This document shows positions 4,143-42,888 of a stretch of 45,261 nt of DNA, in pieces; within the stretch, counting starts at the first letter, position 1; each line of letters begins with the position of its first letter. The DNA comes from a virus (lineage: Duplodnaviria; Caudoviricetes), in the IMG/VR virus record IMGVR_UViG_3300032269_000993, positions 1 to 45,261 of that record. The stretch is one strand, 5' to 3'. The position numbers and the translations under genes are program-made. A model generated the notes under the pieces. It worked only from the letters and a program-made list of their open reading frames with translations. It searched no databases and was not told the origin of the DNA.

Positions 4143-4157
4143 TGTTTTTGTCCTTTC

Positions 4158-6347: not shown

Positions 6348-7166
6348 TTATGAACCCGTCACATATTGATACTTGTCCCAGATTACGATTAAACTAGAGT
6401 TATTTGCTAATATTGTAGCTGTTTGGTTAAACACTTGTAATATAGGTGTTTCATAGTTTCTATTTACCCCGTTTGTTGCGTAGAATCTCACTGAATCACC
6501 CCTCATAAGACTAACAGTAGTACTAAAAACATGGTTGTGGTAGCAAACCCCAGCGGTAGTATCCGATAAAGGGTCAGGTACCCAAGATACAGTCGAACCC
6601 GTAGAAAACGCTGTTTCTCTGCTTATTGCTGGTGCGTTAACTCCAAAGGATAAGTTTTTTACTAGATAGACGTTGGTAACTGGCCTCTGAATATCACTGG
6701 TTCCTTGATTGTTTATTTTGATATTTATATTGCCCTTAAATGTGTAAACACCTGATATAGGAGCGATGAAATCCGTACCATCAAATACATTTAAGTTTGA
6801 GGAATTTATAACTGTGGTACTCATTCTAATCAATGCACTTACCGTCGCTGAATTTAACAACGTTAAAAATGAGTCAGGGCTAGCCGGTACATTTTGGTCT
6901 AACGAAGGTGTCGCTTTCATTAGTGCAAAGCTAAAATAACCAATGTTTAAAAGGTTCCCTAGGAAACTATTTACTGAGGCGAAGTAGGTTGCCCAGATAC
7001 CTGTGTTATATGCTTCATTGTTAACCCACTCCATTGTTGGGTATTCACCGAATCCAGTTGTGGTATTGTAAGCCCAGCCTGCGGCACGCTTTGTCGCTCC
7101 TGGGTCTATCTTTGCCCCGTTGGTTGCCCAGACGGGTAGTATGCTTGGTGCTACTGGGAAAGCCAT
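6348..7166 (-). CDS. Tail fibre/receptor-binding protein paralog 1 (start moved to ATG 7166)
   Basis: MAFPVAPSILPVWAT start matches the paralogs and has an AAAGGA RBS; C1q-like FIAPISGVYTF; follows the baseplate wedge genes. Confidence 0.7.
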   Translation of the reverse strand: MAFPVAPSILPVWATNGAKIDPGATKRAAGWAYNTTTGFGEYPTMEWVNNEAYNTGIWATYFASVNSFLGNLLNIGYFSFALMKATPSLDQNVPASPDSFLTLLNSATVSALIRMSTTVINSSNLNVFDGTDFIAPISGVYTFKGNINIKINNQGTSDIQRPVTNVYLVKNLSFGVNAPAISRETAFSTGSTVSWVPDPLSDTTAGVCYHNHVFSTTVSLMRGDSVRFYATNGVNRNYETPILQVFNQTATILANNSSLIVIWDKYQYVTGS

Positions 7167-7182
7167 AGTTACTCTGTCCTTT

Positions 7183-7857
7183 CTAGGTAGTCGTTGTCTT
7201 GTAGAAACCACCAGCAACGGGGTTGTTTCGTGGGTCTAGGTAAGACAATCCAGCACCGTCCGCACTGACGCTTTGGTCTGGTTTTCCTAACTGATAATAC
7301 TTGATAACGGAAGAATTTACAGTAAGTTGAATACCTATAGCCTTAAGTTTAAATAGGTCATAGACAAACTGAGTATACGCTGGAGTCGTAGGGTCTAGGG
7401 CAATGGTTACGTTGAGTGACGCATTACCAGACTCTTGGAACAATGCATTTGTAAACTGAGAGCCGTAACCATTGGCTACGTAGTAATTGTAAAAATCCCT
7501 TATTGTACCGCGTGACGTCACAAATACGATTCTGTTAGCAATGGCACTACGTAGCGTAGAATCGGAGGCCGTAGACGAATATGTTTGTGTCAAGTAGTTA
7601 GCCATGATTTTTAAATAGTCACCAGAGGAACCCGAAGGTATCGTAGTACTATTCACACTGTTATAGTTTACTGCGTTTACAAGGGAGCGAATAATATCAT
7701 AGTATTGCTGTTTCTGTGTAGCTATGGCTGTCATTATTCCCATGAAACTAGGCATATTTTGGTACACGCTGGGTAACTGAGTTTTCAAATCTGCTATGAA
7801 ATCCTTTGCAGGTAATTGTGTCAAAGCACCTGCGGGGAATTGCTGTGGTGTTATCAT
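7183..7857 (-). CDS. Baseplate wedge protein (DUF2612-like)
   Basis: Directly after baseplate J; GDYLKIMA / DSTLRSAIANRI / SRGTI pattern. Confidence 0.6.
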   Translation of the reverse strand: MITPQQFPAGALTQLPAKDFIADLKTQLPSVYQNMPSFMGIMTAIATQKQQYYDIIRSLVNAVNYNSVNSTTIPSGSSGDYLKIMANYLTQTYSSTASDSTLRSAIANRIVFVTSRGTIRDFYNYYVANGYGSQFTNALFQESGNASLNVTIALDPTTPAYTQFVYDLFKLKAIGIQLTVNSSVIKYYQLGKPDQSVSADGAGLSYLDPRNNPVAGGFYKTTTT

Positions 7858-14759: not shown

Positions 14760-15070
14760 AACCTACTGTGAAAGTCCCCACCTCCTTTCTCCAAAAGTGC
14801 TCTTTTTTATTTTTTTATTTTTTATATTAAATATATAGAAATAGTCACAGTATTTTAGAAGACGAGTAAAATAGCGGGTTTTACCTCTACAATGACTGTG
14901 AACCCACTGTGAGCCTGTTTTTGTTATTCAATATTATCAAGGTTAAATAAAATTGGTATTTTGATAAGAACTGTGAAGTGACTGTAAAACTTGTCTGACA
15001 ATAAAGCTACCCTGTCACAGGATTGATAACATTGAACAAGTATAGCTTTAATAAAATGATAAAAGCTGTT
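14760..15070. repeat. Origin-like element copy A (ACTGTGA repeats and AT tract)
   Basis: ACTGTGA/TCACAGT at 14765, 14845, 14895, 14906, 14970 plus variants; T-rich tract 14801-14840; homologous to 27600-27900. Confidence 0.7.
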
Positions 15071-23456: not shown

Positions 23457-23485
23457 TTTACAAGGGATTCAATGCATGGCATAGT
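23457..23485 (+). promoter_or_regulatory. Promoter P1 of a three-member family
   Basis: TTTACA-17 nt-CATAGT; shares GGATTC..TGGCATAGTAACTA with the 36647 promoter. Confidence 0.6.
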
Positions 23486-23816: not shown

Positions 23817-24533
23817 ATGTCACAGTTAGTTAAGTTAGAGTCGATTGCTGGTAATAATGTAGTTGCAACCACTAGTTTGAAGATTGCAGAGGTGTTTGAA
23901 AAGAACCATTTTGACGTAATTAAGTTAATAGAAATAGAGATAAACAAAGGATTATTCGGTGCCAGAAATTTTTCTGTCTCCTCTTATAAAAGTGAACAGA
24001 ACAAAGAAATCAAGATGTATTTACTCGATGAGAGATTTACAACTTTCCTCACAATGGGATTCACAGGAGACCGAGCAGACCAATGGAAGCTTCAGTACAT
24101 AGACGCATTTAACGCAATGAAAGATGAGATACATAAGAAAAAAGAATTAACCACTGGGGGTGTGTTCAAGGATTTCCATAGTATCGCTGAGGTTCTAGGG
24201 TTAAGCAAGGAACAAGCTGCTATCCATGCAAACCATGCCACAAGGAAGAAGACAGGAGACGATGTTCTAGCTCTCATGGAGTACAAAGTAATCACTGGGA
24301 CTAGGTATCAAAGTTTAACAAAGTGGCTAGAAGGCGCTGGGATATCTGCGGTAAAGGGTAACAAAGTATTAAGTGATAAAGGTTACCTAGTGAAAGACTT
24401 AAGTAATCAATGGACACTGACAAAGCTAGGTGAAACTATCGGTCACTTAGTTACACAGGAAGCTGGAGGTAAGATGAGACAAAGCATCGAGTGGTCAGAG
24501 GAAGTAGTCAATGTAATCTTAGGGGGCAAGTAA
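23817..24533 (+). CDS. rha: Rha-family regulator with antirepressor (KilA-C-like) C-terminus
   Basis: TTSLKIAEVFEKNHFDVI, SSYK..QNK..KMYLL, LTMGFTG..A.QWKLQYIDAFNAM. Confidence 0.9.
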   Translation: MSQLVKLESIAGNNVVATTSLKIAEVFEKNHFDVIKLIEIEINKGLFGARNFSVSSYKSEQNKEIKMYLLDERFTTFLTMGFTGDRADQWKLQYIDAFNAMKDEIHKKKELTTGGVFKDFHSIAEVLGLSKEQAAIHANHATRKKTGDDVLALMEYKVITGTRYQSLTKWLEGAGISAVKGNKVLSDKGYLVKDLSNQWTLTKLGETIGHLVTQEAGGKMRQSIEWSEEVVNVILGGK

Positions 24534-27599: not shown

Positions 27600-28005
27600 G
27601 GCAACTGTGATTTCACAGTCGAGGTTCGATGACCCAAAAGGTGTCTTCTTATTTTTTTTATTTTTTTATAATATATATAGTAATAGTCACAGTGTATGAG
27701 AAAACCTTGGTACCAAAGGAAAAGGCACTGTGCAGCAACTGTGAACCACTGTGAACCCATCAGATTTCCCTTTGTTTACGTAGTATTCTTTTTACAGTGA
27801 TTTCCCTGTCTCTGTGAACTCCACTGTAACAGCTGGCAGACAATAATTACATAGTGTCACAGGATTGATAACATTGAACATCTTAGTCCTTGGTAATTTG
27901 ATAACATTTTGATAAAGTAACAGAGCTTCCTTGTCACAGTTAAAACCCTTGGTGCCAAAGAACTTAGTCCTACTACTTGACACACAATGAACTATGTGTC
28001 ACAGT
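27600..28005. repeat. Origin-like element copy B at the strand switch
   Basis: About 11 ACTGTGA/TCACAGT-like heptamers, AT tract 27648-27685, 26-bp identity with copy A; upstream of HTH, helicase and polymerase. Confidence 0.75.
27977..28005 (+). promoter_or_regulatory. Promoter with embedded inverted repeat (operator)
   Basis: TTGACA-17 nt-CACAGT; TGACACA-N10-TGTGTCA. Confidence 0.55.
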
Positions 28006-28026
28006 ATATTTAAGGAGGAAGGAACT

Positions 28027-28419
28027 ATGAACACAGAAATGGAGTTACATGAGCTCGCAGGTGTCATTGGTATCAGTGTTAGAACATTGTACCGAGCACT
28101 TCGTAAAGCCGATGTTCGCATTGATTACAAGGTTAGTCATAGAGGTAAGCGTAAATCAGTGGTCACAGTTAACGATGTGGTCATATCACACATAAAGGAG
28201 GCACTATGTAAACGCAGCTTTAGACCAAAGCGTCTTGATAACTTGGTTGGTTTGTTCTATATCGTTAAGGATGGATTGACACTAAGAGAATTTAAGATTG
28301 CTGTGAACGATGTAGTCAGCATAACAGAGACAAGCTGTTTCAATGGTCTGTTTACGTACACAATGATAACTTGGGATAACACAGTCTACGAAGTAACAAC
28401 TAGGGAGAAATTGAAATGA
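28027..28419 (+). CDS. HTH DNA-binding protein (start moved to ATG 28027)
   Basis: LHELAGVIGISVRTLYRAL helix-turn-helix; AGGAGG/AAGGA RBS. Confidence 0.75.
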   Translation: MNTEMELHELAGVIGISVRTLYRALRKADVRIDYKVSHRGKRKSVVTVNDVVISHIKEALCKRSFRPKRLDNLVGLFYIVKDGLTLREFKIAVNDVVSITETSCFNGLFTYTMITWDNTVYEVTTREKLK

Positions 28420-30353: not shown

Positions 30354-32252
30354 ATGAAAAACTTTACAAATGTTTACATTGATATGGAGTATAGAAAAAA
30401 CGACGTTACAGGAACCTTTAAACTGATATGTGTGTCTTTAGAAGTAGATGAGTTGGTAACATCATTTGATTTGAGACACGATGACAAAGATTTTAAAGAT
30501 TTTATTAATAAGTTAAGTAATCCATTATTTATAGCGTACAACGTAGCAGGTGCAGAGGGTCAGGCGTTAACTCAGATAATGGGTCACAAATGGATGTTGA
30601 AAACGAACTGGATTGACTTATGGGTAGAATTTAAGCAGTATTCTTTAACACATCCCGATTATATGAATCAAAAGAACGGTATAACTACGGCTTTGGATAC
30701 CTTTGAGATACCATATAACGCTGATAAAGAGGGAACCCGTGAGATTATCTTAGGTAACGATGAGTACACAGACGCTCAGATGGCTCAGATTATCAAGTAC
30801 TGTGAAGCCGATGTTCTATCTTTGAGACCATTAGCACGTAAGTTGTTCATTATTGGCCAAGATTACGGTGTAACCCTTGATGATATGATTGAACGTGGTC
30901 GCTATTGTCGCAACGTTGGCGTATCTCAGTTCTGTTCACGTGGTTTCCCAATGGACAAAGAGTTAACAAAGGCTGTCTTTAATAATCGTCAGAAGCTGCG
31001 CAATGCACTTAGTGCTCAATGTAACGAAGTGACAGGGTTCAAGATATACAAAGAAAATACTAAGGGTCGTGGTGAACACAAAGTCTTTACACATTATAGC
31101 TTTAGCTTCAGCGAATTCGCTGAATACCTTGAGTCTAAGGGTCTGCTACATACTTGGAAACGCACAGAGGCTGGTAGACTTTGCATGGAAGAGGACTATG
31201 TAGACGAAATGGTCAGCGGTTACAAGACAATCATCGAGCCTGTGTACTTAGCACGCAATACATTGAAGCAATTGAACTCCACAGACCTCAGCGCAATCAT
31301 GGATGACGATGGATACATTAGACCTGATTATTGGGTATTTCATCAAAAGACTTCAAGGACAAGTCCTAAGCCAGCCAAAGGGTTCATAATGAATCTATGC
31401 CCTTGGTTACGTATGCTATGCAGACCAGCGCCAGGACGTGCCCTTGTTACCATAGACTTTAAGTCCCAAGAGGTCTTAGTAGCTGCGGCGTTAGCTAAAG
31501 ATTACTCAATGCTCGAAGATTACTTGACCGATATTTACCTTGGTCAAGGTAAGAAGACTGGGTTTATTCCTAAGGAAGCTACAAAGAAGTCACATAAAAC
31601 AATGCGCGACGGATTTAAGCCCGTGGTCTTAGGTACTAGTTTTGGAATGCAAGCGAAGTCATTGTCAATACATTTTTACAACTTCTGGAAAGATCTTGGT
31701 ATCGAGAAAGACCTAGGTGACTGCGAGTCCGACGCTCGTGAGTTTCTTTACAATCACAAGGAGTCGTATGCAGCGTACTATGATTTCATTGCTGACACGC
31801 TGTATTCTATGAAAGACAACGGATACATAGAGACTGTGGACGCTTGGAAGTACTTTTATTCCCGTGGTATGCGTGAGAACTCGGTTAAGAATCTTAAAAT
31901 GCAAGGTAACGGTGCAGCAATGACTCGTCGGGCTAGTAACTATTGTATCGAGGACTACAATGTTTGGGTTATCCCACTGCACGACGCTGTTTACTTTGAA
32001 TGCGCAGAGTCCGAAGCTGTAGAGTTAGCCAAAAAAGTCAGCGCTGCAATGGTTCAAGCGAGCATTGATACCTTGGGTGAAGAGTTCGGTAAGCACATGG
32101 GTACAGCGACACAGATATTCACGCACACTATGCCTTACTATGATAAACGTGGTGAGACAATGTATCGCCGAGTAACTAAGGAACTAGGTTTCCCTTGTCC
32201 CGAGGAATTTACGAAGCCACCAGAGATTGAGAACATCCACAACCCAGCGTAA
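30354..32252 (+). CDS. polA: DNA polymerase family A with 3'-5' exonuclease
   Basis: Exo I YIDMEY, Exo III YCEADV, motif A IDFKSQE, motif B RDGFKPVVLGTSFG, motif C LHDAV. Confidence 0.93.
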   Translation: MKNFTNVYIDMEYRKNDVTGTFKLICVSLEVDELVTSFDLRHDDKDFKDFINKLSNPLFIAYNVAGAEGQALTQIMGHKWMLKTNWIDLWVEFKQYSLTHPDYMNQKNGITTALDTFEIPYNADKEGTREIILGNDEYTDAQMAQIIKYCEADVLSLRPLARKLFIIGQDYGVTLDDMIERGRYCRNVGVSQFCSRGFPMDKELTKAVFNNRQKLRNALSAQCNEVTGFKIYKENTKGRGEHKVFTHYSFSFSEFAEYLESKGLLHTWKRTEAGRLCMEEDYVDEMVSGYKTIIEPVYLARNTLKQLNSTDLSAIMDDDGYIRPDYWVFHQKTSRTSPKPAKGFIMNLCPWLRMLCRPAPGRALVTIDFKSQEVLVAAALAKDYSMLEDYLTDIYLGQGKKTGFIPKEATKKSHKTMRDGFKPVVLGTSFGMQAKSLSIHFYNFWKDLGIEKDLGDCESDAREFLYNHKESYAAYYDFIADTLYSMKDNGYIETVDAWKYFYSRGMRENSVKNLKMQGNGAAMTRRASNYCIEDYNVWVIPLHDAVYFECAESEAVELAKKVSAAMVQASIDTLGEEFGKHMGTATQIFTHTMPYYDKRGETMYRRVTKELGFPCPEEFTKPPEIENIHNPA

Positions 32253-32270
32253 CAACTGGGTTTTTCTTTG
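32241..32270 (+). terminator. Intrinsic terminator after the polymerase
   Basis: AACCCAG-8 nt-CTGGGTT followed by TTTCTTT. Confidence 0.65.
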
Positions 32271-32295
32271 TGACAAAAATTCTTTGACCCGTCGC

Positions 32296-32324
32296 TTGAC
32301 TTTGGATGCCACGAGTGGCATCCT
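32296..32324 (+). promoter_or_regulatory. Promoter P2 with palindrome
   Basis: TTGACT-17 nt-CATCCT; GGATGCCA-CGAG-TGGCATCC overlaps the spacer and -10. Confidence 0.65.
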
Positions 32325-32330
32325 TAGAAC

Positions 32331-32520
32331 AGGAAGAGTGATAGCTCTGACAGCAACGAGAGTCTAGGGGAAGCAGCGAACGGTGCCTCTAGGAGTACAA
32401 GGGAACCCAACTACATAGGGTTTGACCATATAGCAGTGAGACCTGCTTCAAGTTGAATTGATTTCAACGATGACAACGTAAACAACGTAAAGTAGTTCCT
32501 GTGGTGCGGTTTCACCACGT
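32331..32520 (+). ncRNA. Structured leader RNA copy 1
   Basis: Series of hairpins homologous to 36682-36860. Confidence 0.6.
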
Positions 32521-32593
32521 TAAAACATAAACACATCGGGACAAAATACATAGTTTCCATTGTCACTTTGCAATTAATACTAGGAGACACAAT

Positions 32594-32929
32594 ATGACAG
32601 TAGAATTTAGAATCATTGAGATTGTTGGAGAATACGAAGGTGACGAGTACGAAGAAACATATCAAGTGTTAAAAGATGGCTTTGAATCTAAGAAATCTGC
32701 CAGTGAGTACGCAGTAGCTAATTACCAAAGTAAACAATACTTTATACGTGGTGACAAACTAAAGTACCTGACAAAGCAACAAGAACTAGCTTACAAATTA
32801 CAGAAAGAACTAAAAGAATTGTTATACTTAAAACCAGGCGACAACGATGTACGTAGAGATATTACTGCGAATCAAAATAGATTAGATAAACTTAGTAAAC
32901 AAATAGAAAAAGAAATCAGAGGACAATAA
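32594..32929 (+). CDS. Hypothetical protein
   Basis: AGGAG RBS; first gene after the leader RNA. Confidence 0.7.
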   Translation: MTVEFRIIEIVGEYEGDEYEETYQVLKDGFESKKSASEYAVANYQSKQYFIRGDKLKYLTKQQELAYKLQKELKELLYLKPGDNDVRRDITANQNRLDKLSKQIEKEIRGQ

Positions 32930-33150
32930 TGAAACACATTTACATGTACGAATACAAAGCAGCGTTGAGCGATGGCACGGATATAACAATGAGGTCTGTG
33001 AATCTTAGTGTATTCAGAGCCTTAGTTAAACGTTATGACAAGAAATCAAGTATTACAAAGATAACTATGACTCTTGCATTCACTGGTGACAATGACACAG
33101 GGTTTGGCATTGAAGAATACAACAAAGTAATCTGGGAGGTAGCAAAATGA
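32929..33150 (+). CDS. Hypothetical protein
   Basis: Coupled ORF with GAGG RBS. Confidence 0.65.
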   Translation: MKHIYMYEYKAALSDGTDITMRSVNLSVFRALVKRYDKKSSITKITMTLAFTGDNDTGFGIEEYNKVIWEVAK

Positions 33151-33374
33151 TGACAGAATCTGGAATCATTGATATTGAAAAGCTTTGTGTCGGGGATAGT
33201 TTATACTACGTTGGAAAATACAAAGTAAGAGGTAGACATTATAAAGTTATTGATATTTGTAAGCGTACTGAAACTGTAACACTGTCTAAATGGAAAGGAA
33301 AAAGGGAAATGAAAATAACCTTTGACCTACTAATAGCAATTTTTATAACTATTGAAAAAGGACAAGGATGGTAA
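33147..33374 (+). CDS. Hypothetical protein
   Basis: GGAGG RBS, ATGA overlap. Confidence 0.6.
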   Translation: MMTESGIIDIEKLCVGDSLYYVGKYKVRGRHYKVIDICKRTETVTLSKWKGKREMKITFDLLIAIFITIEKGQGW

Positions 33375-33376
33375 CT

Positions 33377-33544
33377 ATGACACGACGTATACTACTTGAA
33401 CCACAAGACACCGTTAAGATTGATGGCAAAGATTACAGAGTTTGTGACCACATGTTCGAAGGTGATACAACGGTTACAATATTAGTCAAAGGGAAAGGAG
33501 CAGTAACTATAGGAAAGGAGATACTCGATGAAAGTGTTGAATAG
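33377..33544 (+). CDS. Hypothetical protein (55 aa, not in the track)
   Basis: MTRRILLEPQDTVKIDGKDYRV...; fills the gap with AAGGA RBS. Confidence 0.55.
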   Translation: MTRRILLEPQDTVKIDGKDYRVCDHMFEGDTTVTILVKGKGAVTIGKEILDESVE

Positions 33545-33752
33545 TTTCTATTTGACCACAGATGATGTAGCAGATATGTTTCAGCGTTACTTAGAAGACA
33601 TCGGTGCCGCTGACTTAGAAAACGAAGTGGAATACAGCGAATTTGAGAAAACATTTCAAGAGTGGCTAGGAAACATGGAAGCCAATGAGTTGATTCTTTG
33701 GTCTCCACGTGAACAATGTTACTACGTAAAGAAGGAGAACTTAGAACTATGA
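33528..33752 (+). CDS. Hypothetical protein, paralog of 24768..25034
   Basis: AGGAG RBS; shared motif pattern. Confidence 0.65.
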   Translation: MKVLNSFYLTTDDVADMFQRYLEDIGAADLENEVEYSEFEKTFQEWLGNMEANELILWSPREQCYYVKKENLEL

Positions 33753-34039
33753 AAACAGCATGGGAAATATTGAGAGAAGAAAGCATTGCGGCGATGGGCT
33801 TGTCACGAGGTAAAGACGAAGCCCTAGGGGCTGCGTATCAAAAATACTTAGACACAAAGGAAGAAATAAACTCAAAAATACTGAGAGATAACCCAGAATT
33901 AGATGTGAACAACAAAAAACTTTTAAAATTAGCCTCTATGGGCTTTGGTTACCTTGTTACAACAGACGATTTACTTAAAATAAAGGACTTAGAAAATGAA
34001 AATAGTAATAACAATGTTGCTCAGTCTAACAATAGTTAG
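33749..34039 (+). CDS. Hypothetical protein (start moved to ATG 33749)
   Basis: AGGAG RBS, ATGA overlap. Confidence 0.6.
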   Translation: MKTAWEILREESIAAMGLSRGKDEALGAAYQKYLDTKEEINSKILRDNPELDVNNKKLLKLASMGFGYLVTTDDLLKIKDLENENSNNNVAQSNNS

Positions 34040-34463
34040 TTGTGGCGCAAACAGAGGAAATCAGTTCAAAGACCCAGAGTTAACCAATGTGATTATGCAA
34101 GCTGCGAATGACTTAGAGTCACGCAGTTTCAACACATCAAAGATTTGGACTAACGTTGATAGCTGGGAATTTAGTAACGACGCTTACACTGGTGAAAATG
34201 GTCGCTGTGACCATGCAAACAGTGATATAGAGTTTAACCTCACCCAAGCTGACCAAGGAAACCACGTAACGATTAATCGGGAAATGTGGAATACCTTGAA
34301 TATCTGGGAGCGCAAAGAGCTTTTGATTCATGAGCTGGCACATTGTGCCTATGGAATTGAACACAGTAAATATGGACTTATGAACCCAGAGTTAATATTG
34401 ATAAAGAATCAACAAGGATACGACAATATTTTAGACAACTTTGTATATGGAGTAAAACAATGA
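33996..34463 (+). CDS. Lipoprotein zinc metallopeptidase (zincin)
   Basis: Signal and lipobox [16 protein letters not shown]; [12 protein letters not shown] and Met-turn-like GLMNP. Confidence 0.8.
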
Positions 34464-34906
34464 GTTCTGGGTGTAAATATAAAGAAGTGATATTACCCAA
34501 AAGGAAAAGAATTACCCTAATTGCTCATGACAACAAAAAGAAAGAATTATTAGATTGGTCCGTATCACACAGGGATAAACTAGTTGAACATGAATTATAT
34601 GCTACAAGTACAACAGGTAGGTTGATAGAAACAGAGACTGGTCTTAAAGTTACTTGCTTCCAAAGTGGGCCATTAGGTGGGGATATGCAAGTGGGTTCTC
34701 ATATAGTAGAAGGGAAATTAGACCTTATTGTTTTTTTCTGGGACCCTTTAACTAATCAACCTCATGACCCAGACGTTAAAGCGTTATTAAGAATTGCTGT
34801 TGTTTGGAATGTACCCCTAGCATGTAATCTGTCATCCGCCGATTTCTTAATTAGTTCACTATATTTTTCAAGTGAATATAAAAAACAAATGAAGGAGATA
34901 AAATGA
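34460..34906 (+). CDS. mgsA: Methylglyoxal synthase
   Basis: [50 protein letters not shown] all present. Confidence 0.95.
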
Positions 34907-35184
34907 CTAACAATTTTAAACACGTAGATATCAACACAAAGATTTACAACGGTAATGCCGTAGTCGTAGAGTTCACCTATCGTGACGTTATCTACACAAA
35001 CGGCGTGGAACTTTCCGAAGTAATCAGGGCAAACATGATACCGCAGACCTTTGTTTTCAAGCGCCTAGTTGAGCCTTTTGTTCATGTGAGCGGCATAAAG
35101 TACACAATGGATCAGTTGCACGAGTTTAACACAGTGGTTTGTAACAAAGTGGCGGCGATAGCGTCGTTTCCAAAGGAGGTGTGA
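34903..35184 (+). CDS. Hypothetical protein
   Basis: AGGAG RBS, ATGA overlap. Confidence 0.65.
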
Positions 35185-35459
35185 TAATGTGCCATAATTT
35201 AATAAGCGATTTAGAACTCAATGATTACATCATTGACTACGCTGGTAAAATGTTCAAGGTTAACGATAAGCGCATAGTGGCCGATGGTTCCGAAGTGGTT
35301 CTTGCTCTCGAAGAAGTTACGAAAGCAAAGAGACCCAACACACTGGAACGGGGATTTTACCTAAGTGGTCGCTGGTTCACATCATTATACGAAGAAAAGA
35401 ATCATCCAAGGGATATCAAGGAAATAATCAAAGGAAGCGAGGTGAGCTATGGCTTTTGA
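35181..35459 (+). CDS. Hypothetical protein
   Basis: AGGAGG RBS. Confidence 0.65.
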   Translation: MIMCHNLISDLELNDYIIDYAGKMFKVNDKRIVADGSEVVLALEEVTKAKRPNTLERGFYLSGRWFTSLYEEKNHPRDIKEIIKGSEVSYGF

Positions 35460-35778
35460 AACCAAGTTTGACGTTGACGGCTATGAACCAATTTACAACC
35501 AACTAAGTTTACATATGAAAAAAGTATACTTGAACTTTGTACTTAAGCACCGGGGTGGCGTTGGTAGACCATCAGACAATGTTCAATTTGACCGTGAGTT
35601 ACATTTTTACAATGAGTGTAAGCGTGAGCTTGTTGCAATTACACGTAGAATCGAGTATCGTACGTGGTCATGTAACGAGGTGACCTATGATAGACAACGT
35701 GACCTAGCGGCTTTGCACCGACACTTTAGGTTTACGTTGAGCTTTTTGTTTAACCATAACGTTGGGGAGGATAGATAA
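35449..35778 (+). CDS. Hypothetical protein
   Basis: GAGGTG RBS. Confidence 0.65.
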   Translation: MAFETKFDVDGYEPIYNQLSLHMKKVYLNFVLKHRGGVGRPSDNVQFDRELHFYNECKRELVAITRRIEYRTWSCNEVTYDRQRDLAALHRHFRFTLSFLFNHNVGEDR

Positions 35779-35780
35779 CA

Positions 35781-35939
35781 ATGGATTTAGGTGACTTACA
35801 CAATAGTATCATTGATTTACTCGAAGACTTTGAGAAACACTATCCAGAGGATTACAAAGGTGACGCAGAATACACAAGTTTTGTAATGGCCGCTGATTAC
35901 TTTTTAAAATGGGGACACTGGGAGGACAAAGACGAATGA
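35781..35939 (+). CDS. Hypothetical acidic protein (52 aa, not in the track)
   Basis: GGAGG RBS; MDLGDLHNSIIDLLEDFEKHY... Confidence 0.55.
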   Translation: MDLGDLHNSIIDLLEDFEKHYPEDYKGDAEYTSFVMAADYFLKWGHWEDKDE

Positions 35940-36082
35940 CAAGGCAAGAGCGCAAAGAACTCTATGCAAAATGGGACAAGGTTACATTAGATGACCTTGT
36001 TGCCATGGACGAGGAAACATACGGTAGATATAGGGTCTACGTAGCTAAGAAACGCAGAAAAGCAAAGGAAACTAAGAAATGA
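35936..36082 (+). CDS. Hypothetical basic protein (48 aa, not in the track)
   Basis: GGAGG RBS; ATGA overlaps at both ends. Confidence 0.55.
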   Translation: MTRQERKELYAKWDKVTLDDLVAMDEETYGRYRVYVAKKRRKAKETKK

Positions 36083-36480
36083 AAGCAGGAGATACAGTAA
36101 AAATTATTAGAGTTGGTTCAAATTTACCACAAGAGCTACTTCACTCTCATGTAGAAATTGTCGGATTAACTATTAGTGGTTACGTTATTATGGCACCTAA
36201 TTCCGTTTGTTGGCATGCCGTTAATTGTGAACACTCATACAATAGTGCACATGGTATTTTAATCAAGGAACTTGAAGAACCAAGTGATATAGTACCAATT
36301 TTAGAGACGGAAGAGTTAACCCAAGTAGAAAAACGCATCATTAGATGTAGTGTGTGTAACAGCAGGGAGAATGTAACTGCAATAAAATTAGGTGCCAGTG
36401 TAAACGGAAACTCCTTTACCAACGTCATAAGACTTTGTCGCCATTGCAGACAAAAGTTATCCGAGGAGCTTAAGAAATGA
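36079..36480 (+). CDS. Hypothetical protein with C-terminal zinc ribbon
   Basis: CSVC...LCRHC. Confidence 0.65.
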   Translation: MKAGDTVKIIRVGSNLPQELLHSHVEIVGLTISGYVIMAPNSVCWHAVNCEHSYNSAHGILIKELEEPSDIVPILETEELTQVEKRIIRCSVCNSRENVTAIKLGASVNGNSFTNVIRLCRHCRQKLSEELKK

Positions 36481-36650
36481 AGTTAGACGGTCGTACCAAA
36501 GCAGGCAAAGCAGCCAAGGAATCGGCGAGACAACGTCGCAACGAGTACCACAGAAACTATAGAGCGTCGATGACTGAGAGACAATGGAACAAAGTACTAG
36601 AGAGACAACGAGAATATAGAGCACGAAAAAAACTTGGCACCGTCGCTTGA
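36477..36650 (+). CDS. Small arginine-rich protein (57 aa, not in the track)
   Basis: GAGGAG RBS, ATGA overlap; MKLDGRTKAGKAAKESARQRRNEYHRNYRASMTERQWNKVLERQREYRARKKLGTVA. Confidence 0.65.
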   Translation: MKLDGRTKAGKAAKESARQRRNEYHRNYRASMTERQWNKVLERQREYRARKKLGTVA

Positions 36651-36675
36651 CTTTGGATTCCATCGGTGGCATAGT
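36647..36675 (+). promoter_or_regulatory. Promoter P3
   Basis: TTGACT-17 nt-CATAGT; CCGTCGCTTGACTTTGGAT is identical to P2. Confidence 0.7.
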
Positions 36676-36681
36676 AACTAT

Positions 36682-36860
36682 ATGGAAGCAATAGCAACCA
36701 TAGCACCGAGAGGAACCTAGAAACGAGCGACACTGCGCTAGGTTACGTCCATGGGAACCCAACGATACTGGGTTTGACCTGAGCCTGAGAGAACTAGGCA
36801 CAATAAAGCATACATTGCTTTCATTGGAAACGCTGTTTACATAGTGTAAGCACCGTTTCA
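36682..36860 (+). ncRNA. Structured leader RNA copy 2
   Basis: Homologous to 32331-32520 with conserved blocks and re-paired stems. Confidence 0.6.
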
Positions 36861-36869
36861 TCTGGGAGG

Positions 36870-37145
36870 ATGAGGATGATGACAACACAGTTCGATGACC
36901 TCGTTGAATACAGCGTAAAAGCTGCGACGTTCAACGAGTACGAGGTACAGCGAGAATCACAGTTCTTAGCTAACCTCGTCGATTTTAGATTAGACGAAGC
37001 TCACACGTTACCGCTGGAGCGCCTCGGTGACGCTTTTCGCCGCATACGTGACCACAAGATGAAGATTGACCTTTGCTACGACCGATTCTTAACTATTCTG
37101 GAACAACAAATTAGGGAGAGGAAACTTAACAATGAAACCAAATGA
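36870..37145 (+). CDS. Hypothetical protein
   Basis: GGAGG RBS; first gene after leader copy 2 (start probably 36876 or 36879). Confidence 0.65.
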   Translation: MRMMTTQFDDLVEYSVKAATFNEYEVQRESQFLANLVDFRLDEAHTLPLERLGDAFRRIRDHKMKIDLCYDRFLTILEQQIRERKLNNETK

Positions 37146-37452
37146 AGTATTAGATGGTTACTTAAATGACAAGAAATTTCAGGTATGTGACAGTAGTGCC
37201 GCTGGGGAACTTTCCAATATTTGGAGAGACGTAGACGTATCATCGTTACATTTAGATACGGTTAGGGGTTTGTGTAAGTACAACAGGATTAGGTTGAAAC
37301 CTGAGCCATATAAAAAAGAGTACATTGTAGAATTTGATGCCAAAGCTGACTATAGTATAGATGGGAGCGGGTATGAAATTCTGTTGGATATTTTCCCTAG
37401 GACAGTAAACAAAACTTACAAAGTAACCATTGAGGAGATTACAAATGACTAA
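37132..37452 (+). CDS. Hypothetical protein
   Basis: GAGG RBS. Confidence 0.65.
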   Translation: MKPNEVLDGYLNDKKFQVCDSSAAGELSNIWRDVDVSSLHLDTVRGLCKYNRIRLKPEPYKKEYIVEFDAKADYSIDGSGYEILLDIFPRTVNKTYKVTIEEITND

Positions 37453-37648
37453 GCAACAAAGATTAGAACAATATTACAGAGTGTTCTCAGTACCTACGCT
37501 ACAAAAGTCCAAAGAATACTACATCGCTGAAATCGAAGATATGATGGAATCACACAGTCTCAGAGATAAGAAAGCAGTCTTAGATAACATGACCAGTCGC
37601 TTAACTGCGATACAGAGCGTCATAGAATCGAAGTTACGCAATGCTTGA
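37445..37648 (+). CDS. Hypothetical protein (start moved to ATG 37445)
   Basis: GAGGAG RBS. Confidence 0.6.
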   Translation: MTKQQRLEQYYRVFSVPTLQKSKEYYIAEIEDMMESHSLRDKKAVLDNMTSRLTAIQSVIESKLRNA

Positions 37649-37718
37649 ATACATCGGTTTCGCAGTTCTATGTTTCATCGTTTACAAAGCAGCTAAACAA
37701 CTAAATGAAAGGAAATGA
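37641..37718 (+). CDS. Tiny single-TM peptide (25 aa)
   Basis: MLEYIGFAVLCFIVYKAAKQLNERK; overlaps both neighbours. Confidence 0.4.
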   Translation: MLEYIGFAVLCFIVYKAAKQLNERK

Positions 37719-37897
37719 ATATGAAAACTTACTTCACTAAAGAAACTGTAGTTATCAATGGAGAAACTTTTAATGAATTACGTCTTAACTGTGATGACAC
37801 TTTAATTGGCTACGTGTTAGTAGAAAAGAGTAAACAAGAAGGAAAAAAATTAGGTAACAAAATTAGTAATTTCTTTTCTAAAATATTTTCTAAGTAA
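37715..37897 (+). CDS. Hypothetical protein
   Basis: AAAGGA RBS. Confidence 0.55.
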   Translation: MNMKTYFTKETVVINGETFNELRLNCDDTLIGYVLVEKSKQEGKKLGNKISNFFSKIFSK

Positions 37898-37948
37898 AAC
37901 CAGTTATAGATTTAACAAATTAAACATTTTAATAAAAAGGATAACATT

Positions 37949-38458
37949 ATGACAACTTTTGGAACATTTGCACCTATCGCTACTCAATCTGCAAACAACA
38001 AAGTATTCGCTGGCCGTGACAACAATCAAATCGGTGATGTTTTCATGGGAATCTTTGCTGGAGTTCGCTTATCCAAAGCTGGTAAAGAAATCTACGTTTT
38101 CATTGATGAAACTGACAACGTTGAAACATTGATTTTCAACTGCCAATCACTGCAACAAGGTTTAGTCAATGCAGGCGCTAACATTGGTAGCCGTGTGGCG
38201 ATTCAGCTAGCGAGTCGCTTTGAATCGTCCGCTAAGTCTCGTTGTGGTGCAGGGAAAACAATTGTTCAGTACCAAGTCCAATGTGACCCTGAGTTTGTCG
38301 CAGATGACGAAGTTAAGCAAGCTATCGCAGTAATCATGGGCTCATCGGCTCCAGCCGCGAAACCTGCGGCACCTGCAAAACCTGCTGGCTTTGGTTCCTT
38401 TGCTAAACCTGCCGCTTCGGCACCTGCTGCACAATCTAAGAAGCCTAGTCCATTTTAA
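37949..38458 (+). CDS. Putative single-stranded DNA-binding protein
   Basis: OB-fold-sized beta domain, flexible A/P/K tail ending PF, next to the exonuclease. Confidence 0.5.
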   Translation: MTTFGTFAPIATQSANNKVFAGRDNNQIGDVFMGIFAGVRLSKAGKEIYVFIDETDNVETLIFNCQSLQQGLVNAGANIGSRVAIQLASRFESSAKSRCGAGKTIVQYQVQCDPEFVADDEVKQAIAVIMGSSAPAAKPAAPAKPAGFGSFAKPAASAPAAQSKKPSPF

Positions 38459-38478
38459 TCTAGGCAATTCACTGGGAG

Positions 38479-39570
38479 GTGATACTAATGATTCTACAAA
38501 GCAACGCTAACTTGATAACGTCACCATATGACGATGACCCAACGAACCGCTGGATACCTTGGCTTACCAATGCTCAGCACCACAGTATGAAGGCGGTCTC
38601 TGCATCTAAAATTAAAGATTGGCTCAAGATGAGCGACAAAGCTTGGCACTCTAAGCATATCTTAGGAATACGTGGCAAAGATGACGAAGCAGGACAAAAG
38701 AAAGCCTTTGCACTTGGTACCATTATTCACATGGCAGTTTTGGAGCCTGAGAAATTTGAAACCAACGTAATCGTTTGTGACTTAGACCAACGTACCAATG
38801 CTTACAAAGATTGGATTAATGAACAATTTGGTATCTGGGTTCCAGAGTTTAACCCATTCCCACAGTTACCAGAGGCACAGCAAGAAGTTGTCGACGGTGC
38901 CATTGTTCCCGATGTGGTTCCAGAGCCTACAAAGAAACCAGCGAAAAAGCCAACTAAGAAAGACTTAGAACCTAAGGGTACTTGGTTATTGAAACAAGGT
39001 AAAAACGGTGAGTATTACAAAGGTGATGACGAGTTCTTTGTTGTAACGCCTCGTGAAATGGCTATGTTTCGCAGAATGCAGAAAAACGTTGAAGCTCATA
39101 AGCTTGCTAATCAATTGATTCGCAACGGTACTCCAGAGTTAAGCGGTGTTGCTCGTGACCCTGAGACTGGGCTTTACATGAATATTCGAGGTGACTGCAA
39201 AGGCGACGGTTATTTCATTGATGTGAAGACCACAGGGTCTTGTAGTTACTCTGATATCAAGTACGCCATGGAGTCCTACAACTACCCTATCCAACATGTT
39301 CACTATTTGGAAACAGCAAATCTCATTGACGGTGCTGGAGCCTATGAGAACTTTGCCTACCTATTCATATCCAAAGAAGAGCCATACGAAGTGGTCTTAG
39401 TTAAACTAGACCCACTGACACTTGGCAAAGCAGCGAAAGCCCGTCGTAATGCGTTAAGGCGCATAGCGCAATGTGAAGCTAGTGGTCGCTGGGGTAGCGT
39501 TGACGACGGTATCAGCGGTGCGATGGTGATGGAACTTAGTAAATGGTATGACCAGAAATTCAAACAATAA
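38479..39570 (+). CDS. RecE/exonuclease VIII-like PD-(D/E)XK nuclease (DUF3799-like)
   Basis: YH-like/VSAS, GTIIHMAVLEP, E.S, RGD, IDVKTT, Y.IQ..HY, FISKEEPY. Confidence 0.85.
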   Translation: MILMILQSNANLITSPYDDDPTNRWIPWLTNAQHHSMKAVSASKIKDWLKMSDKAWHSKHILGIRGKDDEAGQKKAFALGTIIHMAVLEPEKFETNVIVCDLDQRTNAYKDWINEQFGIWVPEFNPFPQLPEAQQEVVDGAIVPDVVPEPTKKPAKKPTKKDLEPKGTWLLKQGKNGEYYKGDDEFFVVTPREMAMFRRMQKNVEAHKLANQLIRNGTPELSGVARDPETGLYMNIRGDCKGDGYFIDVKTTGSCSYSDIKYAMESYNYPIQHVHYLETANLIDGAGAYENFAYLFISKEEPYEVVLVKLDPLTLGKAAKARRNALRRIAQCEASGRWGSVDDGISGAMVMELSKWYDQKFKQ

Positions 39571-39581
39571 AGGATTAACCA

Positions 39582-39806
39582 ATGAAACTTAATAAAATTG
39601 AAAAAGAGTTATTTGTTAACAGCGAACACAGTGCAGACTTTGATAACGCTGACCTCATGATATTCTGCGCTGACTTTGGTGAGGCGTTAACGATAGCATG
39701 TTCACCTAGATACGAGCCAGTAAGTAATACTCTGCAACTCAAAGTAGACTTGAAACCATACCTCGCTGAGTACTTTAAGAAACATTACCCACAGATTAAG
39801 GAGTAG
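39582..39806 (+). CDS. Hypothetical protein
   Basis: AAGGA RBS. Confidence 0.6.
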   Translation: MKLNKIEKELFVNSEHSADFDNADLMIFCADFGEALTIACSPRYEPVSNTLQLKVDLKPYLAEYFKKHYPQIKE

Positions 39807-39808
39807 CA

Positions 39809-40102
39809 ATGAAAAATCTCAATGGTCGACCGAAAGTCGAAACGTGTAACCACATGATTATAAATCTTCGTGGGTTTCTTACAATCAATGAAATCGTTTC
39901 TCGCACTGGTTATGACAAAAGCTTAGTGTGCAAAGTAATCAATGCAGGGTTTTACCCGTTCAAGATTATTAAAGTTGGCAGTCGCTATGAAAAACTAGTG
40001 GCACTGTATCCATATCTCAAAGGCAAGGAGTTCCCCGAAGACCTATTTCAATCTTGGTTGAAAGGAGACGATGATGGACAGATGCACAAGGTCAGCAATT
40101 AA
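39809..40102 (+). CDS. Putative HTH DNA-binding protein
   Basis: GRPK motif then LTINEIVSRTGYDKSLVCKVI. Confidence 0.6.
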   Translation: MKNLNGRPKVETCNHMIINLRGFLTINEIVSRTGYDKSLVCKVINAGFYPFKIIKVGSRYEKLVALYPYLKGKEFPEDLFQSWLKGDDDGQMHKVSN

Positions 40103-40469
40103 CCGAGCCATACGTAACACCTTTCGACAATCCGAAGTTTACGCAGAGGTCAAGGAAGCTGCGTACTCTAAGGAAAAGGGTGTTCGTGGTGGTAAACGTT
40201 GGGACTGCGCACATTGTAAACAATCGGCCGCTAAGGTTGAAGTCGACCACGTCGAGCCTGTGGTACCTCTTGGTATAAACAGCTACGAACTGAGTATCCA
40301 AGAATACTATAATCGAGTACATTGTTGCCCTCGCAGCAATTTACAAGTCCTGTGTGTACCCTGCCACAACGAGAAAAGTAAACTTGAGAACATTGAGCGC
40401 AAGAAACTTTTGAAGAAACGAGTCAAAGATGAACAAAATCAACAAAGGAAGGCAATGCTAAAAACATGA
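40071..40469 (+). CDS. HNH endonuclease
   Basis: CAHC..VEVDHVEP...NLQVLCVPCHNEK. Confidence 0.9.
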   Translation: MMDRCTRSAINRAIRNTFRQSEVYAEVKEAAYSKEKGVRGGKRWDCAHCKQSAAKVEVDHVEPVVPLGINSYELSIQEYYNRVHCCPRSNLQVLCVPCHNEKSKLENIERKKLLKKRVKDEQNQQRKAMLKT

Positions 40470-40699
40470 GTAAACAATATCTCGTTGAATTTGAACAGAC
40501 CGACGGCACTTTGTGGTCTAAAACCATTGAAGCTAAGGGTAGAAGTGCCGCAGAAAACCTCGCAGAGAGCCTCCTAGACACAGTGTTTTTCAGTGGTCGC
40601 AGTGAACGAAGTTACTTTTACACATTGACCGAGGTTGGCACAGATAAACGTAGAGTCATTAAGGCAATGAATGTAATGGCTCCTAGGAAACCATTTTAA
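40466..40699 (+). CDS. Hypothetical protein
   Basis: ATGA overlap. Confidence 0.6.
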   Translation: MSKQYLVEFEQTDGTLWSKTIEAKGRSAAENLAESLLDTVFFSGRSERSYFYTLTEVGTDKRRVIKAMNVMAPRKPF

Positions 40700-40712
40700 C
40701 TTGGGAGAGGTC

Positions 40713-41087
40713 ATGACAACGAACCCAAAGGACTTAATCGGGGTAACAAAGCCACAGTTAAACTTAGTACCACCGAGTAGCAAAATCTATGAGGCATTGG
40801 CTCTTCAGGATGGAGCTAGCAAGTACGGGGCTTACAACTGGAGAGCAAACAAAGTACAGCTTTCAATATATATTGCTGCATTACAGAGACATGTTGACCA
40901 GTTTTGGGACGGTGAAGACTGCGCCCAAGATTCTGGAGTTCATCACTTAGCACATGCTAAGGCTTGTTTAGGCATTATTATTGACTGCATAGAAACAGGA
41001 AACCTAATTGACGATAGACCACCAAAGGGCACAGCTTCAGCATTAATAACTAAAAACACAAAGAAAAAGGACAAAACCAATGTGTAA
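40713..41087 (+). CDS. dATP/dGTP diphosphohydrolase N-terminal-like protein (DUF5664)
   Basis: KPQLNLVP, GASKYGAYNWR, AALQRH, GED..QDSGVHHLAHA. Confidence 0.85.
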   Translation: MTTNPKDLIGVTKPQLNLVPPSSKIYEALALQDGASKYGAYNWRANKVQLSIYIAALQRHVDQFWDGEDCAQDSGVHHLAHAKACLGIIIDCIETGNLIDDRPPKGTASALITKNTKKKDKTNV

Positions 41088-41307
41088 CTTATTCCAAATT
41101 GACCCTAATTTATCTCAGCACAAACTACGTAAAGAAGTATACAAAGAAACAACGAAAATGAGGAAATGCTTGCAGTGTGACAAAAAATTCTTAAGCCTCT
41201 TTGCAGGTCATAGAAAATGCATGAAATGCAAACATAGTAAAGCAGCGAAACGAGCAAAGCTTCAAACTTGGTCAATTTGGTCACACAGTATCTTTGAGGA
41301 GGGTTAA
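41080..41307 (+). CDS. Small zinc-finger protein
   Basis: RKCLQCDKKF.S...HRKCMKC. Confidence 0.65.
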   Translation: MCNLFQIDPNLSQHKLRKEVYKETTKMRKCLQCDKKFLSLFAGHRKCMKCKHSKAAKRAKLQTWSIWSHSIFEEG

Positions 41308-41309
41308 CA

Positions 41310-41489
41310 ATGTTGCCTTACTAACTGTTCCTTGGTCTCATAGCTTTCTTAATTTCAGTGTTCAAGTGTCACGAAGTCATGGAGACATCGGACTACTTCT
41401 TTGTCTTGGGTCTTTGTTTACTAATATGGCCTGTAATCTTAGTTCACGCAGTTTACTTAATAATCTTTGGCGTAAAGGAGAACGATTAA
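41310..41489 (+). pseudogene. Small two-TM membrane protein gene with in-frame TAA at codon 5
   Basis: GGAGG RBS; MLPY*LFLGLIAFLISV...GLCLLIWPVILVHAVYLIIFGVKEND, similar to 41491 and 25302. Confidence 0.55.
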
Positions 41490-41490
41490 T

Positions 41491-41709
41491 ATGTTATCAA
41501 CTTACCTCTTAATTGGTGCAGTTTATATATTTGCTTATTTAATTTCCCAAAAAGATATAATTATTAAATCTATTAAAAAAGGAGTCCATGGAATAACTTG
41601 GTTAGAAGCAACTATAGGGGTACTACTTGCACTTATTTTTACTATCCCTGTCTGGCCTGCTTTCGCAATTCTTCATGTATACGATTTATTTAAGAAGTTT
41701 CGCTCTTAA
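41491..41709 (+). CDS. Small two-TM membrane protein, possible holin
   Basis: Two hydrophobic segments, basic C-terminus, directly upstream of the endolysin. Confidence 0.6.
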   Translation: MLSTYLLIGAVYIFAYLISQKDIIIKSIKKGVHGITWLEATIGVLLALIFTIPVWPAFAILHVYDLFKKFRS

Positions 41710-41730
41710 CATTATTACAAAGGAGACTAC

Positions 41731-42198
41731 GTGTCAAAGTTAAAATGTAACAGCGCAGGCAAAGCAATCATGAAATCCAGCGAAGGTTGGGAACCAAAGG
41801 CTTACTATGCAACCCCAGAGGAACAGAAACGAGGTCTGCTTAGCATAGGATACGGGTTCACGTATTACGCCGACGGTTCAAAGATTCAAGCAGGTGATAC
41901 AATGACACGAAGCGAAGGTGACAAGTTATTCGATGAACACATTGTCCCAGCGTTCGAAGACAAAGTTAGAAACTTAGTAACCATTGAAATCAACGAGAAC
42001 AGATTCAGCGCACTTGTGTCACTTTGTTACAATATTGGCAGCGGTAACCTGAAAACATCGACACTGCTTCGCTTAGTTAACAGCGGTGACTTTGAAGCCG
42101 CAGCAGACGAGTTCTCAAAGTGGAACAAACAAAACAAACGTGTTCTACGTGGATTAACTGAACGTAGAGCCAAAGAAAGGGAGTTATTTTTATCATGA
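41731..42198 (+). CDS. Endolysin, GH24 lysozyme
   Basis: SEG...AY...SIGYG, ALVSLCYNIG, STLLR..N.GD...AADEF.KWNK...L.GLTERR..E..LF. Confidence 0.92.
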   Translation: MSKLKCNSAGKAIMKSSEGWEPKAYYATPEEQKRGLLSIGYGFTYYADGSKIQAGDTMTRSEGDKLFDEHIVPAFEDKVRNLVTIEINENRFSALVSLCYNIGSGNLKTSTLLRLVNSGDFEAAADEFSKWNKQNKRVLRGLTERRAKERELFLS

Positions 42199-42392
42199 GT
42201 AAATTTACCAAACCAACTAAAGAAATGTGTGACAAAGCAGCGTTTTTACTTAGATTCGGTGACTGCATTACGGATGAACGATTCAGTATAATGACGTTGC
42301 CTCAAATTTCAGATGACTTGTTAAACAACATGAATTATCAATTTGTTGATTGGATCATTAAAAATGTTGAGTTAAGAAAAGGAGTTAATTAA
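42195..42392 (+). CDS. Hypothetical protein
   Basis: ATGA overlap with the lysin. Confidence 0.55.
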   Translation: MSKFTKPTKEMCDKAAFLLRFGDCITDERFSIMTLPQISDDLLNNMNYQFVDWIIKNVELRKGVN

Positions 42393-42396
42393 CGCT

Positions 42397-42888
42397 TTGA
42401 ACAAAAAAATTGAGTACTTAGTGCTCGCATTCATTGGGGTTGTAATCTGTGATAAACTCATATTTCCAAGCAAACCTGTTACAGAGATTAAGTATGTTAC
42501 AAAGACCGAGGTTAAAACTGAGGTTCATACGGTTTACGTTGGGACAAAGAAAAACAACGTTGCTACGAAAACAGTTTCAGAGAAGCTTGATTCTCATGGT
42601 TCCGTAGTAGAACGTACCACAACGAATACAGTAGACCTCTCAGTAACCAACCTAAATCTAGGTGTTGATACAAAGATTCATAGTAATACAGAATTAAGCT
42701 ACGCTAGCAGTGAATACAGACAATCGTGGTTAATCGGTGTTAGCGTTGTGAACATTGTAAACCCAGTTAGCCTAGATAACGTAAGTTTACAATTTGGCTA
42801 TAGACCCGTAGGGAATTTGTGGGTCATAGGTTCTACTACGATTAGTTTGAGGCCTGTTGTCTCTCTCGGAGTGGCTTTAGTTCTTTGA
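42397..42888 (+). CDS. Membrane-anchored protein, spanin candidate
   Basis: N-terminal TM, T/K/V-rich linker, C-terminal amphipathic beta strands; last gene of the lysis region. Confidence 0.55.
   Translation: MNKKIEYLVLAFIGVVICDKLIFPSKPVTEIKYVTKTEVKTEVHTVYVGTKKNNVATKTVSEKLDSHGSVVERTTTNTVDLSVTNLNLGVDTKIHSNTELSYASSEYRQSWLIGVSVVNIVNPVSLDNVSLQFGYRPVGNLWVIGSTTISLRPVVSLGVALVL

Follow-up and report, generated by a model that had tools for sequence, protein, structure and literature searches.

Two predicted early promoters of a 45-kb myovirus each head a conserved, covarying RNA of predicted new fold

The virus record and its early transcription units

The window, that is the whole stretch of DNA which was analysed (45,261 nt), is a complete virus record with direct terminal repeats. 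By PHROG matches the minus strand carries a structural arm of myovirus type and a primase and a PolA-type polymerase lie at 28.7-32.3 kb, and from 32.6 kb there is a plus-strand series of short ORFs to which PHROG assigned no function. No RNA polymerase was found in the 75 ORFs scanned in the window, and the search for tRNA and tmRNA genes gave none. The best named protein matches were 25% for the polymerase, 30% for the terminase, 44% for the endolysin and up to 59% for the methylglyoxal synthase; the capsid had no named match and the host was not assignable from the protein matches of the window. The methylglyoxal-synthase-like gene belongs to the early unit (34460-34906, Pfam MGS, the above identity being to bacterial mgsA) and no homologue of it was detected in the relatives searched.

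Two long intergenic gaps begin with predicted promoters of sigma70 type, and each promoter is followed by a leader with an RNA core which is called type A here (Table 1). The repeat of the promoter in both gaps with 17-nt spacers, as given by the original prediction made from the letters alone, was found in its places, and the promoter layout is identical in all eight type-A copies described below. The promoter is however not simply duplicated, as was claimed there, since a third one of the same class heads a short unit and has no structured RNA behind it; it serves as an internal control. It was also claimed that each leader heads a run of small genes, which is right for unit 1, whereas unit 2 also has an exonuclease and an endolysin. 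The -35 box of promoter 2 overlaps the stop codon of an arginine-rich 57-aa ORF (36477-36650), for which no homologue was detected in the relatives searched.

A palindrome spans the spacer and the -10 box of these promoters and may be an operator. It is present in the relatives G001, G002 (two sites) and G003 and absent at the promoters of G004, G005 and G006, and one more site in the window was found at 20086. Candidate regulators for such an operator are the products of ORF 27994-28419, which is HTH-like, and of ORF 23817-24533, which is Rha-like.

Table 1. Features of the window and the type-B modules of related phages (G and L numbers are our handles for phage records and contigs; promoters are predicted from sequence)
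Feature	Position	Strand	Remarks
Third promoter of the same class	23457..23485	+	No structured RNA behind; internal control
Intrinsic-terminator-like hairpin and U-tract	32241..32270	+	Closes DNA polymerase unit, insulates promoter 1; conserved in G001-G003
Promoter 1	32296..32324	+	-35 TTGACT 32296-32301, 17-nt spacer, TG extension, -10 CATCCT 32319-32324
Palindrome across spacer and -10 box	32306..32321		May be an operator; further sites at 23467 and 36657
Type-A core, copy 1	32332..32447	+	P1, AGYA..CGAGAG linker, P2, H-type pseudoknot, P3, P4
P1, 5'-terminal hairpin	32332..32348	+	(G/A)AUA loop; double changes in 4/5 pairs; 87% paired
Invariant CGAGAG linker and P2	32352..32393	+	(A/U)GCG(A/C) loop pentamer; double changes in 7/7 pairs of P2; 100% paired
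Pseudoknot and P3	32394..32427	+	32394-32396 pairs with 32410-32412 in P3 loop; P3 32401-32427
P4 hairpin	32432..32447	+	UGAGAC loop in copy 1; double changes in 4/5 pairs; 82.5% paired
Modules C and D	32452..32518	+	C at 32452-32473, a hairpin ending CAACGATGA; D at 32501-32518, a GTGG..CCAC hairpin; both retained at core swap
RBS and early unit 1	32583..36650	+	15 short ORFs, mostly without family matches
57-aa basic ORF	35909..36082	+	Homologues in G002, G003, G005
Promoter 2	36647..36675	+	-35 TTGACT, 17-nt spacer, TG extension, -10 CATAGT
Type-A core, copy 2	36684..36799	+	49% identical to copy 1
Two hairpins behind copy 2	36805..36859	+	Kept in G002 copy b; second weakly terminator-like, just before RBS
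RBS and unit 2	36864..42888	+	Small ORFs, exonuclease VIII-like, HNH, endolysin
Type-B module, G003	L123:12700-12850
Type-B modules, G005	L273:5958-6085, 7076-7200, 8581-8700

Copies, fold and covariation of the type-A RNA

Homologues were collected from polymerase relatives and from pattern scans of viral contigs and thereafter with a covariance model. Eight distinct type-A copies were obtained from six of the eight phage records searched, namely G000 (two), G001, G002 (two), G004, G005 and G006, with pairwise identities of 46-92%; contig L120 has the same sequence as the window and does not enter the count. The covariance-model search gave no copy in G003 or in G007 (polymerase identity 44%, 96% complete), nor was there one in 21 kb of a Silvanigrella phage. 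Outside the records searched, some 30 further polymerase relatives with 41-55% identity are present in contigs of Logan, ENA and JGI. Within the genome, copy 1 and copy 2 find each other by blastn at E 3e-7. An HMM which was built from the copies of G004, G005 and G006 only recovers the two window copies at E 6e-17 and 1e-12, the next match being at 0.23, and the G006 copy, which was absent from the training set of the covariance model, is scored by that model at 88.8 bits (E 4.9e-22). The loose first viral pattern, from 10 of the 64 parts of the set, gave one true new member among at least 119 loci, and later viral scans scored with the HMM or the model gave no copies beyond the eight. The pattern scans of metagenomes and genomes gave 65 and 24 matches, of which 0/89 score with the model, and these patterns were too strict to show absence because they required letters which the G006 copy does not have. 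Matches to P3 only (16-18 bits) were discarded as chance.

The core is about 116-120 nt long and its first GG lies 7-8 nt past the -10 box in every copy, so the RNA would form the 5' end of the transcript. The leaders span 200-320 nt up to the RBS, and the core is without a U-tract terminator. First genes behind the leaders differ between the phages, which suggests that the RNA serves the promoter rather than one gene. The G005 copy is 75% identical to copy b of G002, and G005 is a 159-kb myovirus whose polymerase is a different one and which encodes ribonucleotide reductase, NAD salvage functions and a GroEL (best named match 26%); such identity between unrelated phages points to transfer of the module between them.

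In the alignment of eight rows the four helices are 92.5% paired and both-sided changes are seen in 17 of the 25 pairs, with the reservation that this alignment was fitted to the tested structure, of which RNAalifold gives back 24 pairs. The helix score was reached by 0/500 shuffles, and slid controls drop to 29-55%. The plus strand is taken as the folded strand since G-U cells exceed A-C cells in its stems by 16 to 3. Folding energy of copy 1 is no better than that of its shuffles (z -0.20) and that of copy 2 is modestly better (z -2.36), so the support for the fold comes from covariation and not from energy.

Among the unpaired columns there is one extra helix of 3 bp, formed by the 3 nt after P2 and the P3 loop, besides one weaker alternative register. 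All 24 of its cells are paired, and two independent double changes occur, in G004 and in copy 2 of the window, where 36746-36748 pairs with 36762-36764 through a compensatory C-G. As controls, 4/500 shuffles and 0/2000 column permutations reached such pairing, and its strands, joined by 4, 1 and 5 nt, follow one another as in an H-type pseudoknot. P3 is constant in length and contains a GA bulge. The linker and P2 together may have a T-loop-like layout. Altogether 34 columns are invariant and 23 of them are unpaired in the nested fold, these being the AUA of the P1 loop, AGYA, CGAGAG, the two bulged P3 nucleotides GA and adenines in loops. Such unpaired conservation along with the fixed length of P3 would indicate a tertiary fold that offers a binding surface, beyond a mere stable hairpin.

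The collinear blocks and the three stems named in the original prediction were found in both gaps, and the covariation among homologues, which had been proposed as a check, is borne out by the double changes in the helices and in the pseudoknot; the P1 hairpin and the pseudoknot themselves were absent from that description. Its list of conserved blocks is to be shortened, as CTAG and CTAGG are not conserved letters and the helix there is free in sequence. The word TGAGA in P4 is kept in some copies, is absent in copy a of G002 and is shifted in others. Taken together, the comparison of sequences supports the statement that two predicted early promoters each head a conserved, covarying RNA without a match in Rfam.

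Downstream modules and the exchange of the core

Two further hairpins follow each core. They were described as unrelated between the two copies, and they do differ, but each is conserved at the orthologous place in the relatives. Consensus folding of modules C and D on a plain MAFFT alignment gave weak structure support. These modules are common to the 45-kb phages and G005 (window 32452-32530 and its orthologues), and the tail of module C (CGATAAG in G005), taken with the later GTGG, looks like what follows boxA in rRNA leaders of the order to which G011 belongs, a likeness that may be due to chance.

In G003, a close relative whose polymerase is 79% identical, another module, named type B, stands in place of the core between an unaltered promoter and unaltered modules C and D. 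Type B consists of a 5' hairpin and then AGTTAYTTGACAA in four of four copies, with more hairpins behind; no Rfam match to it was found and it is a second undescribed element. Three of these copies are in G005, where seven near-identical sigma70-type promoters were found in 13 kb (L273:3800-17900), spaced 0.6-1.5 kb apart with 1-4 genes each. Five of these promoters have mosaic leaders of 220-350 nt which are built from shuffled modules, one with type A, three with type B and one with a third type (leader at 3806). At its predicted 5' end every long leader, be it type A, type B or the third type of G005, forms a hairpin.

The word of type B was compared with boxA words from 114 rRNA loci of five bacterial groups (178 matches), a reference which may not be that of the phage host. 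The commonest boxA-like 11-mer in these loci is GTTCTTTGACA (24 matches), and the type-B word agrees with it at 10/11 positions in G005 and 9/11 in G003. Position 4 is C in 159/178 of the rRNA matches and A in 4, and it is A in all four type-B copies; the C4A mutation inactivates boxA in E. coli assays (PMC5725501). Inside the type-A leaders the best boxA matches had 3-4 mismatches in 7/8 leaders, searched with query motifs which were later compared with PMC13753749. One word with a single mismatch lies near the start codon of copy a in G002, outside the core. That the type-A slot can hold a boxA-like module hints at control of elongation, and could equally be explained by a decoy; the swap shows a shared slot and not a shared function.

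Some other features of these phages were recorded. A putative lipoprotein or metallopeptidase ORF is common to the 45-kb phages and G005 (window 33996-34463; L289:8389-8832) and is a further sign of a shared gene pool or host. An AT-rich, origin-like block of nested TAGTAC/GTACTA inverted repeats lies ahead of the first early promoter of G005 (L127:300-510). In G006 the first gene behind the leader encodes a pentapeptide-repeat protein (L280:990-1350).

Comparison with known RNAs and possible function

The put RNA of HK022 is about 70 nt long, with two stems and a triplex, occurs behind two early promoters, binds the zinc-binding domain of beta' and allows read-through without added factors (PMC9378689). 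Type A is like it in that each of two early promoters is followed by a copy, the copies being related yet diverged, in its cis position in the nascent RNA, in a bulged compact fold and in that no dedicated protein is evident. It is unlike put in its size of about 116 nt and in its four helices with an H-type pseudoknot; moreover the put phages are lambdoid with terminators before their early genes, whereas the present ones are myoviruses in which no strong terminators were found. As in lambda nut with N and in the rrn boxB-boxA leader (PMC3177189, PMC5725501, PMC13753749), there is a promoter-proximal RNA signal and a small basic ORF, and the type-B substitute has the layout of a hairpin followed by a boxA-like word, which is the layout of the rRNA leader (PMC13753749). 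Type A itself is without boxA, however, type B has the A at position 4, and for the basic ORF 35909-36082 no match to an N family or a structure was found, nor a homologue in two type-A phages.

The double T-loop of the T-box Stem I apex, RNase P and the L1 stalk is similar in that a GAGA-containing pentamer lies 5' of a short helix whose loop has a second pentamer (PMC3664808). The consensus AGNNA...UGNNA is found in one of eight copies (G004), while six read CGAGA...AGCGA and G006 has AGCGC in its loop, and the enclosing Stem I, specifier loop and antiterminator of T-boxes are absent here. EAR and conAn of Bacillus are likewise RNAs which give processive antitermination, alone or with protein, but EAR is a part of the eps operon and conAn is found on conjugative elements, which are rich in intrinsic terminators (PMC7858274, PMC8191782). 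By these features type A appears to be none of put, nut, T-box or EAR. T-box membership was rejected on finding no Rfam T-box match, no terminator or antiterminator and no amino-acid or synthetase gene downstream, and membership in EAR or conAn on the position at +1 of phage early promoters with no Rfam or sequence match.

The original prediction did not recognise the RNA as one of a known family, and the search of Rfam 15 which was proposed for checking this agrees, giving no gathering-level match in the window and, at E up to 10, only chance matches far below threshold. A blastn search of 50,697 phage records with the two leaders, which is not a direct alignment with put, gave only chance matches of 19-31 nt, and named phages and plasmids also gave only chance matches. 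Type A was undescribed in the literature where it was searched, and a search of supplementary data of Fremin et al. 2023 (PMC10690425) gave no match; it may be among the 8,495 unnamed candidates of that work. As judged from sequence, type A is a genuine RNA element whose predicted fold is new. It takes a position of a known kind, and its function is putative.

For this function the likeliest single reading, to which we give somewhat less than even confidence, is a putative put-like cis-acting signal for anti-pausing or antitermination on host RNA polymerase; it is favoured by the swap of types A and B along with the +1 position. The host sigma70/sigmaA holoenzyme would start transcription at the early promoter, and the nascent RNA would fold into the P2-pseudoknot core on leaving the polymerase. 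Through the invariant unpaired surface which the CGAGAG linker, the P2 loop, the GA bulge and the A-rich pseudoknot loop would form, it may then bind the elongation complex or else a Nus factor, and the complex so modified would overcome, in cis, pausing or Rho-dependent termination over 4-10 kb of short genes. In favour of it, there appears to be one copy per early promoter, by analogy with putL of HK022, and the promoter at 23457 with its short unit is without type A. Against it stand the difference of the fold from the two-stem put, the A at boxA position 4 of type B, and the lack of strong intrinsic terminators in 32.45-43.3 kb, where a relaxed scan gave two weak matches versus 0-3 in six shuffles. 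One of the two, the hairpin 36827-36859, lies just before the second RBS and is also kept in G002. There would accordingly be nothing but Rho or pausing to counter, and in G005 the short, close-set units would have little need of processivity. The put- or nut-like antitermination of the original prediction is therefore retained as the likeliest reading, with indirect support from the boxA-like swap, although type A differs from put in size and fold and its core is without a boxA. Since the core has no terminator behind it, the stand-alone sRNA which that prediction also offered is less probable.

The 57-aa basic ORF could be an RNA-binding partner, and is taken as a lead only. Its homologue is the first gene after copy a in G002; it was not detected in G004 or G006 and gave no PDB match at E 10 and no relevant Pfam match.

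Several other explanations have to be weighed against the put-like signal. The hairpin and pseudoknot might stabilise the 5' end, protecting early mRNA from 5'-dependent decay, including that by a host shut-off nuclease, or leaving a stable processed fragment. We consider this somewhat unlikely, even though pseudoknots can block exonucleases, all long leader types open with a hairpin, the repeated use on short G005 units fits protection per transcript and no terminators are needed; a plain hairpin suffices for 5' protection, and neither the 23 invariant unpaired positions nor the boxA-like word of the substitute module would be explained. A decoy acting in trans, which the strongest early promoters would produce in large amounts, is unlikely as well. 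It could be a tRNA-elbow binder based on a double T-loop, or a mimic titrating a host defence or Nus protein, with type B as a NusB decoy. Phage RNA mimics reportedly exist, the five different mosaic leaders of G005 look like RNA cargo, and the module moves between unrelated phages, as the 75% identity mentioned above indicates. The CGAGA lying 5' of a 7-8 bp helix with an (A/U)GCGA loop also resembles the T-box Stem I apex (PMC3664808), but the AGNNA...UGNNA pair is confined to G004, no terminator would release a discrete sRNA and a decoy has no need of the strict +1 position.

The H-type pseudoknot with its invariant G-rich stem and GA bulge would suit a new class of riboswitch-like sensor or of small self-cleaving ribozyme, and the copy-2 type has its weak terminator-like hairpin just before the RBS. 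Such a class is nevertheless improbable, as there is no Rfam match at the gathering or E-value level, the genes downstream are unrelated between copies, the copy-1 type has no expression platform, and besides the pseudoknot and one weaker register the unpaired columns hold no alternative helix of at least 3 bp. That the element acts as DNA, be it as a single-stranded structure, an origin or an array of operators, or that it arose by chance duplication, is highly improbable; the -35-like word TTGAC occurs in both module types and the promoter spacer is palindromic, but the internal TTGAC has no -10 box behind it, and the excess of G-U over A-C cells and the double changes in helices and pseudoknot speak for RNA. 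A leader peptide was rejected, the longest closed ORFs being of 8-31 codons and different between copies (the G005 leader was partly covered).

Extending the put-like signal, one may think of 5' RNA modules that are mobile and interchangeable and reprogramme the host transcription complex, namely a protein-free type-A antiterminator and a boxA variant that recruits or sequesters Nus factors, exchanged within one slot and traded between 45-kb and 159-kb myoviruses. This wider proposal is doubtful as a whole; if true, type A would correspond in its role to HK022 put, with an unrelated structure and beyond the lambdoid phages. Few RNA-only processive antiterminators are described (PMC8191782). 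The natural compensatory variants and the natural swap partner offer a ready test of whether a fold other than put modifies the polymerase. Should type A be a stabiliser or a decoy instead, it would still be a new phage RNA fold moving between unrelated phages, and a portable 5' module of 120 nt could serve expression work.

Two minor observations were made outside the leaders. A second diverged pair of intergenic repeats, 12.8 kb apart (14804-15062 and 27646-27904), has a T-rich tract and many CTGTGA/TCACAG words and is possibly an origin or operator array. The DNA polymerase gene is interrupted in G002 (L122:2516-5146) and G003 (L123:10001-12616), and the insert of G002, with its HNH ORF 3986-4495, is probably a group I intron with a homing endonuclease.
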